A stretch of DNA of 64,000 nucleotides from Escherichia coli. GTDB taxonomy: Bacteria; Pseudomonadota; Gammaproteobacteria; Enterobacterales; Enterobacteriaceae. A model generated the notes under the pieces. That model was not told the origin of the DNA. It searched no databases and saw only the letters and a list, made by a program, of their open reading frames with translations. Position numbers and translations under genes: made by a program. Shown here one piece after another: positions 51,846 to 51,925 of the stretch. Each line of letters begins with the position of its first letter. Within the stretch, counting starts at the first letter, position 1. The DNA lies in NCBI RefSeq assembly GCF_003334785.1, contig NZ_QOWV01000009.1. The stretch is one strand, 5' to 3'.

Positions 51846-51925
51846 CAGAAAGGGGGAGTTAACCTGTTGAAAGTACGGTGAACGCCCCCTCACCCTAACC
51901 CTCTCCCCAAGGGGGCGAGGGGACC
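51846..51925. repeat. GC-rich palindromic intergenic element between convergent hemB and tauD
   Basis: ...aaagggggag...gccccctcaccctaaccctctccccaagggggcgaggggac...: C-rich and G-rich arms that can pair (cccctcaccc with gggcgagggg), distinct from the REP consensus; probably a bidirectional terminator or a repeat of another family. Confidence 0.4.

Follow-up and report, generated by a model that had tools for sequence, protein, structure and literature searches.

A BoxC (PIT/TMECO) copy between the convergent Escherichia coli genes hemB and tauD, with a putative role as a hairpin barrier at mRNA 3′ ends

The RNA hairpin formed by a REP protects the upstream mRNA against 3′ exonucleases. Another E. 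coli repeat, BoxC, has been described since 1992; we know of no RAYT-type transposase associated with it and, to our knowledge, nobody has shown a fitness effect of a BoxC copy. The original K-12 annotation contains 33 BoxC copies of 51–59 bp. Holder et al. (2015, NAR; PMC4666352) trace the repeat to its first description in the 1990s as a palindromic repeat and to its rediscovery in 2000 by Hoyne and Maher (2000, 2002) as a potential intrastrand triplex (PIT) element; they renamed it TMECO and state that BoxC, PIT, and TMECO are the same. Their consensus reads CCCTCNCCC-N3-6-GGGNGAGGG-N3-GGGNGAGGG, and they favour a role at the DNA level (genomic instability). According to Holder et al., Hoyne and Maher found neither promoter nor terminator activity for PIT elements and no effect on RNA polymerase. 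A further system is described by Adams et al. (2021, eLife; PMC7815308), who, citing Dar and Sorek (2018; PMC6061677), refer to Rho-terminated transcripts with processed 3′ ends located at protective stem-loops. In the literature on TMECO, PIT, or BoxC function after Holder et al. (2015), we found nothing beyond passing citations.

Here, we analyzed a 64,000-nt stretch of E. coli DNA (the window), in which the stop codons of the convergent genes hemB and tauD flank a 106-bp spacer (51833–51938). The features of the locus are as follows (window coordinates and strand).

50825–51832, (+): hemB (porphobilinogen synthase), listed ORF, with the stop codon at 51830–51832
51833–51885, (+): single-copy half of the spacer, directly after the hemB stop, with no match at other loci
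51886–51921, (−): BoxC/PIT/TMECO core of 36 nt, CCCTCGCCCCCTTGGGGAGAGGGTTAGGGTGAGGGG, type A with one mismatch ("type A mm")
51887–51895, (−): G-block 2, GGGTGAGGG, pairing with the C-block via G·T/G·U wobble
51896–51898, (−): loop 2, TTA, which defines type A
51899–51907, (−): G-block 1, GGGAGAGGG, pairing with the C-block with one G·A mismatch
51908–51912, (−): loop 1, CCTTG, between the C-block and G-block 1
51913–51921, (−): C-block, CCCTCGCCC, the pyrimidine strand of the hairpin/triplex, according to the published consensus blocks
51922–51937, (−): conserved BoxC flank, ACGAGAGTGGACGGTC, compared with the family consensus G.gc.CG.aCgGTC
51939–52790, (−): tauD (taurine dioxygenase), with the stop codon at 51939–51941
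52086, (+): Rho termination region, corresponding to MG1655 388,499 (minus strand), antisense to tauD (Adams et al., Supplementary file 2)

The hemB coding sequence is shorter in RefSeq (975 nt) and has the same stop. Its transcript contains the C-rich strand of BoxC, and that of tauD contains the G-rich strand, starting 18 nt past the stop codon. A sequence-only reading had placed a palindromic element at 51846–51925 between the two convergent stops. The location between the stops agrees with the gene coordinates, and the element does lie inside this interval; the interval is nevertheless offset, in that 51846–51885 is unique spacer and the repeat unit spans ~51886–51937, so that an end at 51925 loses ~12 nt of the conserved BoxC flank. 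The string gccccctcaccctaaccctctccccaagggggcgaggggac corresponds to 51884–51924. The single-copy half could form a hairpin of its own (51851–51864 / 51877–51890), which borrows the end of BoxC. In addition, a 16-nt stretch of this half, CCTCTCAGAAAGGGGG (51841–51856), echoes CCTCTCCCCAAGGGGG (51900–51915) in the BoxC hairpin, with a score that was reached by 6 of 2,000 shuffled sequences; this faint resemblance may perhaps reflect a decayed, partial second BoxC copy.

We found that the hemB-tauD palindrome is a copy of BoxC/PIT/TMECO, namely TMECO no. 5, type A with one mismatch, an assignment that leaves next to no room for doubt. Specifically, the published TMECO pattern has a single exact match in the window, at 51887–51921 on the minus strand; this 35-nt pattern and a 22-mer each matched the window once, compared with 0.00 matches expected from 100 shuffles. 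Table 1 of PMC4666352 contains 23 MG1655 copies; its entry 5, classed as "type A mm" and located at 388,664–388,699, reads CCCTCGCCCCCTTGGGGAGAGGGTTAGGGTGAGGGG. The conversion of window coordinates (MG1655 = 440585 − window coordinate) was verified locally, and the window is here identical to the reverse strand of MG1655, which together place our 36-mer at exactly 388,664–388,699; both its sequence and its coordinates are thus those of entry 5. Over 18 MG1655 loci, we recovered exactly the 23 published copies, all of them intergenic. An Rfam scan of 51500–52300 with E-values up to 10 returned chance matches only, the best of which (17.5 bits against a gathering score of 40; E = 0.89) belonged to an unrelated eukaryotic family. 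The palindrome and its family are already known, and the copy itself, which is tabulated, is real but ordinary. Taken together, the explanation that we prefer, with a probability of roughly 85%, is that of a BoxC copy in a derived spacer allele, with a putative function as a hairpin barrier at RNA 3′ ends.

Over the aligned blocks, the window and MG1655 share 99.96–99.98% identity. The window has neither IS3B nor IS2A (47428–50334 on the minus strand and ~57990–57995), and consequently yaiT is an intact ORF of 968 aa and yaiX is uninterrupted; the DNA stems from a close relative of K-12 MG1655 and not from that strain.

The sequence-only reading had also held that the element lacks the REP signature seen elsewhere in the window and might belong to another repeat family, and both statements proved correct, with BoxC as the family and this copy already in the literature. 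The REP pattern GCCKGATGCGRCG, with up to one mismatch allowed, is absent from the spacer (51833–51938) and occurs 14 times in the rest of the window. Canonical REP/BIME clusters (GCCGGATGCGGCG / GCCTGATGCGACG) lie at 30547–30768, 61728–61914, 4663–4695, 10750, 32758, and 63930, and two of them are tandem arrays with units of ~100 bp.

The core consists of three blocks rather than two arms. In the hemB sense, that is, on the (+) strand, the C-block reads as the G-rich GGGCGAGGG (51913–51921), for which two C-rich blocks, CCCTCTCCC (51899–51907) and CCCTCACCC (51887–51895), are alternative pairing partners; the final G of the core on the minus strand is at 51886. In the minimum free energy structure of the minus strand, the C-block is paired with G-block 2, the block that serves as the alternative third strand under the published triplex model. 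Two inverted repeats, 51886–51895/51913–51922 (10 nt, 90%) and 51883–51890/51910–51917 (8 nt, 100%), confirm that C-rich and G-rich arms can pair, as had been noticed from the sequence. Folding of both strands, the check proposed alongside that observation, gave a split result. With ViennaRNA, which considers Watson-Crick and wobble pairs only, the minus (tauD-sense, G-rich) strand folded at −31.4 kcal/mol and exceeded its shuffles (z = −2.7), whereas the plus (hemB-sense, C-rich) strand, at −20.2 kcal/mol, did not (z = −1.0), because shuffles of such a GC-rich sequence fold well too.

We ran blastn of the 106-bp spacer against 5,426 complete E. coli genomes. The search for additional copies, which had likewise been suggested, was rewarding: 82,182 similar places were found in 5,409 of the 5,426 genomes (per genome, a median of 17 and at most 31). 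Outside hemB-tauD, only query positions ~53–105 (window ~51885–51937) were matched, which shows that the repeat is limited to the second half of the spacer, the first half being single-copy; these matches end at query positions 97–105 (window 51929–51937). Core and tauD-side flank together make ~52 bp (51886–51937), within the 51–59 bp range of BoxC and in line with a repeat length of ~52–56 bp for this dispersed, intergenic element. The flank on the C-block side is kept among the 15 type A copies of MG1655 (..aaa.G.gc.CG.aCgGTC), and the hemB-tauD copy has gagagtggacggtc there (51922–51935/7). Solo type A copies have far-side flanks similar to the spacer found in the five inverted A+B pairs, and each may therefore be half of some larger palindromic unit that was truncated.

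Beyond E. coli, the BoxC core is abundant on replicons of Azospirillum, Rhizobium, and Sinorhizobium, with flanks that are lineage-specific, in accord with the wide distribution of TMECO reported in PMC4666352. Plasmid p1 of Azospirillum brasilense contains four exact TMECO-pattern cores within 40 kb, a far higher density than in E. coli; they are nearly identical to the E. coli cores, and their flanks differ from those of E. coli and are conserved within Azospirillum (GGTTGCGCTTGTGCCGAACGCACCGCCACG). It is the core and not the flank that is common across Proteobacteria. Phages are essentially devoid of BoxC (3 of 50,697 records). Two records labelled "Campylobacter phage" (MG065686.1 and MG065691.1) each contain two BoxC-like matches of 93% identity, which is unexpected for that host and may reflect contamination or mis-assembly.

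Three length alleles occur at the hemB-tauD locus. A BoxC-containing spacer is present in 3,599 of the 5,426 E. coli genomes, 239 of which have an extra 51-bp unit, and an unrelated 39-bp spacer in 1,818, including Nissle 1917; one third of E. coli strains thus have no BoxC at this site. The 39-bp spacer contains a hairpin of its own, ATGCCGGGTT-atcc-AACCCGGCAT, with a 10-bp stem (for example at positions 634–672 of locus sequence L002, and likewise in five more: L003, L028, L036, L086, and L096), a folding energy of ~−17 kcal/mol (z about −4), and no clear U-tract. Between the stop codons, the BoxC and 39-bp alleles have nothing in common, so one did not arise from the other by a simple insertion. 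We scanned outgroups with a degenerate pattern covering the last 11 hemB codons and the stop, which returned 72 loci. The 39-bp hairpin type was found in E. albertii, E. whittamii, and two other Escherichia lineages; Citrobacter species have a REP-like sequence after hemB, and in most other genera among these loci tauD is not beside hemB. The presence of the 39-bp type in other Escherichia makes it the probable ancestral state, and we infer that the BoxC spacer is a derived E. coli allele that replaced the ancestral 39-bp hairpin spacer.

A comparable exchange was seen at the adk-hemH locus, where the BoxC-less allele is again a replacement of the whole spacer. Here, 156 nt (BoxC plus a terminator-like hairpin) are exchanged for 52 nt of unrelated sequence with another hairpin. 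With the entire spacer replaced at both hemB-tauD and adk-hemH, no clean empty site and no target-site duplication, which would point to transposition, could be defined. All zntA-tusA alleles inspected contain BoxC. In Escherichia sp. E1V33, BoxC at hemB-tauD has a truncated distal block and is accompanied by three copies of the 51-bp unit. This unit (for example, positions 723–773 of locus sequence L004) behaves like a VNTR, with 0, 1, or 2 additional copies depending on the strain. Because its start falls within the BoxC flank (GGGGACCGTCCRCRCTCG), slippage beside the element is the likely origin, and such slippage-prone repeats would make the neighborhood of BoxC a local source of length variation.

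Published mapping data bear on how hemB transcription ends next to the element. For the region at 388,499 on the minus strand of MG1655, Adams et al. (PMC7815308) report a Rho score of 3.8 (p = 2e-9) and sensitivity to bicyclomycin, with upstream/downstream reads of 86/33 in untreated cells and 146/213 with bicyclomycin. Relative to hemB, whose strand it shares, this region is 254 nt beyond the stop codon and ~150 nt beyond BoxC, a position that is good to a few hundred nt because the score uses 800-nt windows. Its location beyond BoxC indicates that hemB transcription passes the element and is ended by Rho, and its location inside antisense tauD indicates that hemB transcripts overlap the tauD 3′ end by ~150 nt. 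The curated Term-seq lists of the same study contain no 3′ end within 388,640–388,759 under any of three conditions; these lists comprise dominant ends only (1,175, 882, and 1,053 per condition), which makes this a weak negative. Moreover, the supplements have no hemB entry, hemB being weakly covered and tauD repressed in the media used, so that the missing 3′ end carries little weight in either direction. The 3′-end sets of Yan (2018) and TERMITe (2025) likewise have no hemB or tauD entry. The sequence-only reading had hung its case on further genomic copies or transcript 3′ ends at the spacer; copies are many, and no mapped 3′ end falls at the hemB-tauD copy.

Other members of the family do coincide with mapped RNA ends. 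We searched the Adams supplement for BoxC sequence strings and checked each end position against the loci. At least seven other BoxC copies have curated Term-seq 3′ ends 3–12 nt after the hairpin, with no U-tract, and in five of the seven the transcript contains the C-rich strand. These ends are as follows.

3781065, (+): primary lldD end, ...GGGAGAGGGGAC[C]
4231270, (−): BoxC 3′ end, ...GGGGCGAGGGGAC[T]
164636, (+): BoxC 3′ end, ...GGGAGAGGGGACC[G]
632098, (+), and 624567, (−): BoxC 3′ ends, 11–12 nt past the stem
3959467, (−): ppiC, ...GGGAGAGGGTCG[G]
847200, (−): BoxC 3′ end, ...GGGGAGAGGATT[A]

With the 3,110 listed ends spread over 9.28 million strand positions, ~0.3 would fall by chance within 15 nt of the 33 copies, both strands counted, a rough figure that overstates the enrichment because genuine ends are concentrated in hairpins between genes. 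At lldD, the end scores 1.3 as an intrinsic terminator and carries a flag for a Rho region. Ends located a few nt past a stable stem without a U-tract are what exonuclease trimming of Rho-terminated transcripts predicts, and REP hairpins are known for such behavior. We found no discussion of a link between BoxC and RNA 3′ ends in the BoxC/PIT/TMECO literature, and the occurrence of BoxC copies at mapped ends is only a mildly new angle. These ends sit awkwardly with the published description of the repeat ("no terminator activity, function unknown").

These data lead us to propose that BoxC at hemB-tauD is a putative exonuclease-blocking hairpin that acts after Rho termination, a role to which we give slightly less than even odds. 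Transcription of either convergent gene would carry BoxC into the 3′ untranslated region, where the RNA would fold into a very stable hairpin with no U-tract that, alone, would not terminate RNA polymerase. Transcription of hemB would run through BoxC until Rho stops it later, inside antisense tauD, and the hairpin would then most likely block 3′-to-5′ exonucleases, thereby fixing and protecting the mRNA 3′ end, in the manner known for REP elements and for the terminal stem-loops of Rho-terminated transcripts. At the DNA level, the single strand may in addition form a triplex, as it can in vitro. The ancestral 39-bp hairpin, which is stable, has no U-tract, and occupies the same place, fits an exonuclease barrier. 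Against such a barrier, the hairpin of the C-rich (hemB) strand is no more stable than shuffles (z = −1.0), and the link to 3′ ends comes from a string search of one published dataset, which leaves termination and exonuclease trimming unseparated.

A different role is implied by the model of Holder et al. (PMC4666352), in which the G-rich strand folds during replication or transcription as an intrastrand purine-motif triplex or a G-quadruplex, stalls polymerases, and becomes a rearrangement hotspot. In that study, CD and NMR showed a stable in vitro triplex, with a Tm of about 74°C, for oligonucleotides of the type A mm class, and TMECO loci vary more than control intergenic sites; at hemB-tauD, the three length alleles and the variable-copy 51-bp tandem repeat point in the same direction, as does the canonical G4 motif on the G-rich strand. 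However, in vivo DMS footprinting showed no sign of a triplex, and the duplex form gave no triplex signal (PMC4666352). According to that paper's summary of Hoyne and Maher, polymerases were blocked in vitro only and PIT elements had no effect on replication in vivo. In addition, the variability may merely reflect gain and loss of repeats, and the sharing of the alleles by thousands of genomes speaks for their age and stability. We therefore consider a DNA-level function rather unlikely, and one that could coexist with an RNA hairpin. The G4 motif itself, GGGGAGAGGGTTAGGGTGAGGGGG (51885–51908 on the minus strand), is of the canonical short-loop type, contains TTAGGG, and is one of only two in the 64-kb window. 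Holder et al. ruled out a G4 in vitro for the full oligonucleotide; an RNA G4 in the tauD 3′ untranslated region is conceivable.

Sites at which Rho loads (rut sites) are C-rich and G-poor. The C-rich strand of the hemB transcript, CCCCCUCACCCUAACCCUCUCCCC (24 nt), is rich in C and has no G, and the Rho region lies ~150 nt downstream on the same strand, so that this tract might itself be a rut site for the downstream termination; Adams et al. (PMC7815308) found a raised C:G ratio within 200 nt of Rho regions. Yet folding predictions put most of the C tracts into pairs with the neighboring G block, a tract of this kind is missing from the ancestral 39-bp allele, and the position of the Rho region is imprecise, all of which render Rho loading at BoxC improbable.

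The suggestion of the sequence-only reading that the palindrome is a local bidirectional terminator, i.e., an intrinsic (Rho-independent) terminator for both hemB and tauD, fared poorly. In its favor, the 106-bp spacer that separates the convergent genes does hold a GC-rich hairpin, and RNA 3′ ends have been mapped at some of the other BoxC copies. However, no U-tract follows the stem on either strand (the tails being ACCGTCCACTC on the plus and CGTTCACCGTA on the minus strand), a promoter and terminator consensus scan of the spacer found no site, no curated 3′ end lies in the spacer, and the published PIT/BoxC assays, as summarized in PMC4666352, were negative. Bicyclomycin-sensitive read-through ~150 nt downstream on the hemB strand argues in the same sense, and even the 3′ end at the lldD BoxC copy scores only 1.3 against a threshold of 3. 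Intrinsic termination at this element is accordingly very unlikely. Finally, a chance palindrome unique to this spacer and belonging to no repeat family, as the single copy in the 64-kb window might suggest, is practically out of the question given the similar places in nearly all E. coli genomes searched (82,182 places in 5,409 of 5,426) and the 23 MG1655 pattern matches with conserved flanks, compared with 0.00 expected in shuffles.

Returning to the putative exonuclease barrier, one may ask whether it extends to the family as a whole. BoxC hairpins might be a second REP-like class that defines mRNA 3′ ends, and the copy at hemB-tauD might have taken over the job of the ancestral hairpin by halting exonucleases from both sides on convergent transcripts that Rho terminates; we regard this generalization as tentative and, on balance, doubtful. 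If true, a 30-year-old repeat of unknown function would gain a testable role, an incremental step in line with REP. The hemB-tauD copy has little discovery value as such; the practical value lies in annotation, as RefSeq/PGAP records have no feature under the BoxC match and sequence readers will keep rediscovering BoxC as long as it is unannotated there.

Compared with known systems, the hemB-tauD copy resembles intrinsic terminators in that a stop codon is followed by a stable, GC-rich stem-loop, but it has no U-tract on either strand and the assays were negative, whereas intrinsic terminators do have a U-tract. Like REP/BIME elements, which are often located in 3′ untranslated regions, BoxC is a short, GC-rich, intergenic palindromic repeat; in contrast, the REP signature GCCGGATG/GCCTGATG is unrelated to the BoxC sequence, and BoxC has three blocks where REP/BIME is a simple palindrome. 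With the stem-loops of Dar and Sorek, as cited by Adams et al., this copy shares a hairpin without a U-tract and Rho-dependent termination downstream, and other BoxC copies share 3′ ends a few nt past the stem; those stem-loops are usually locus-specific, whereas BoxC is a dispersed repeat with no mapped 3′ end at hemB-tauD. From its own family, the copy departs in one respect: the usual type A flank on the hemB side, GAACAGGCC (GAAcag.ccg.c), is absent and replaced by the divergent ggcgttcaccgta. In the other respects compared, namely the core, the order of blocks (C-block, loop, G-block, TTA, G-block), the remaining flank, the intergenic site, and the dispersal, it agrees with BoxC/PIT/TMECO.
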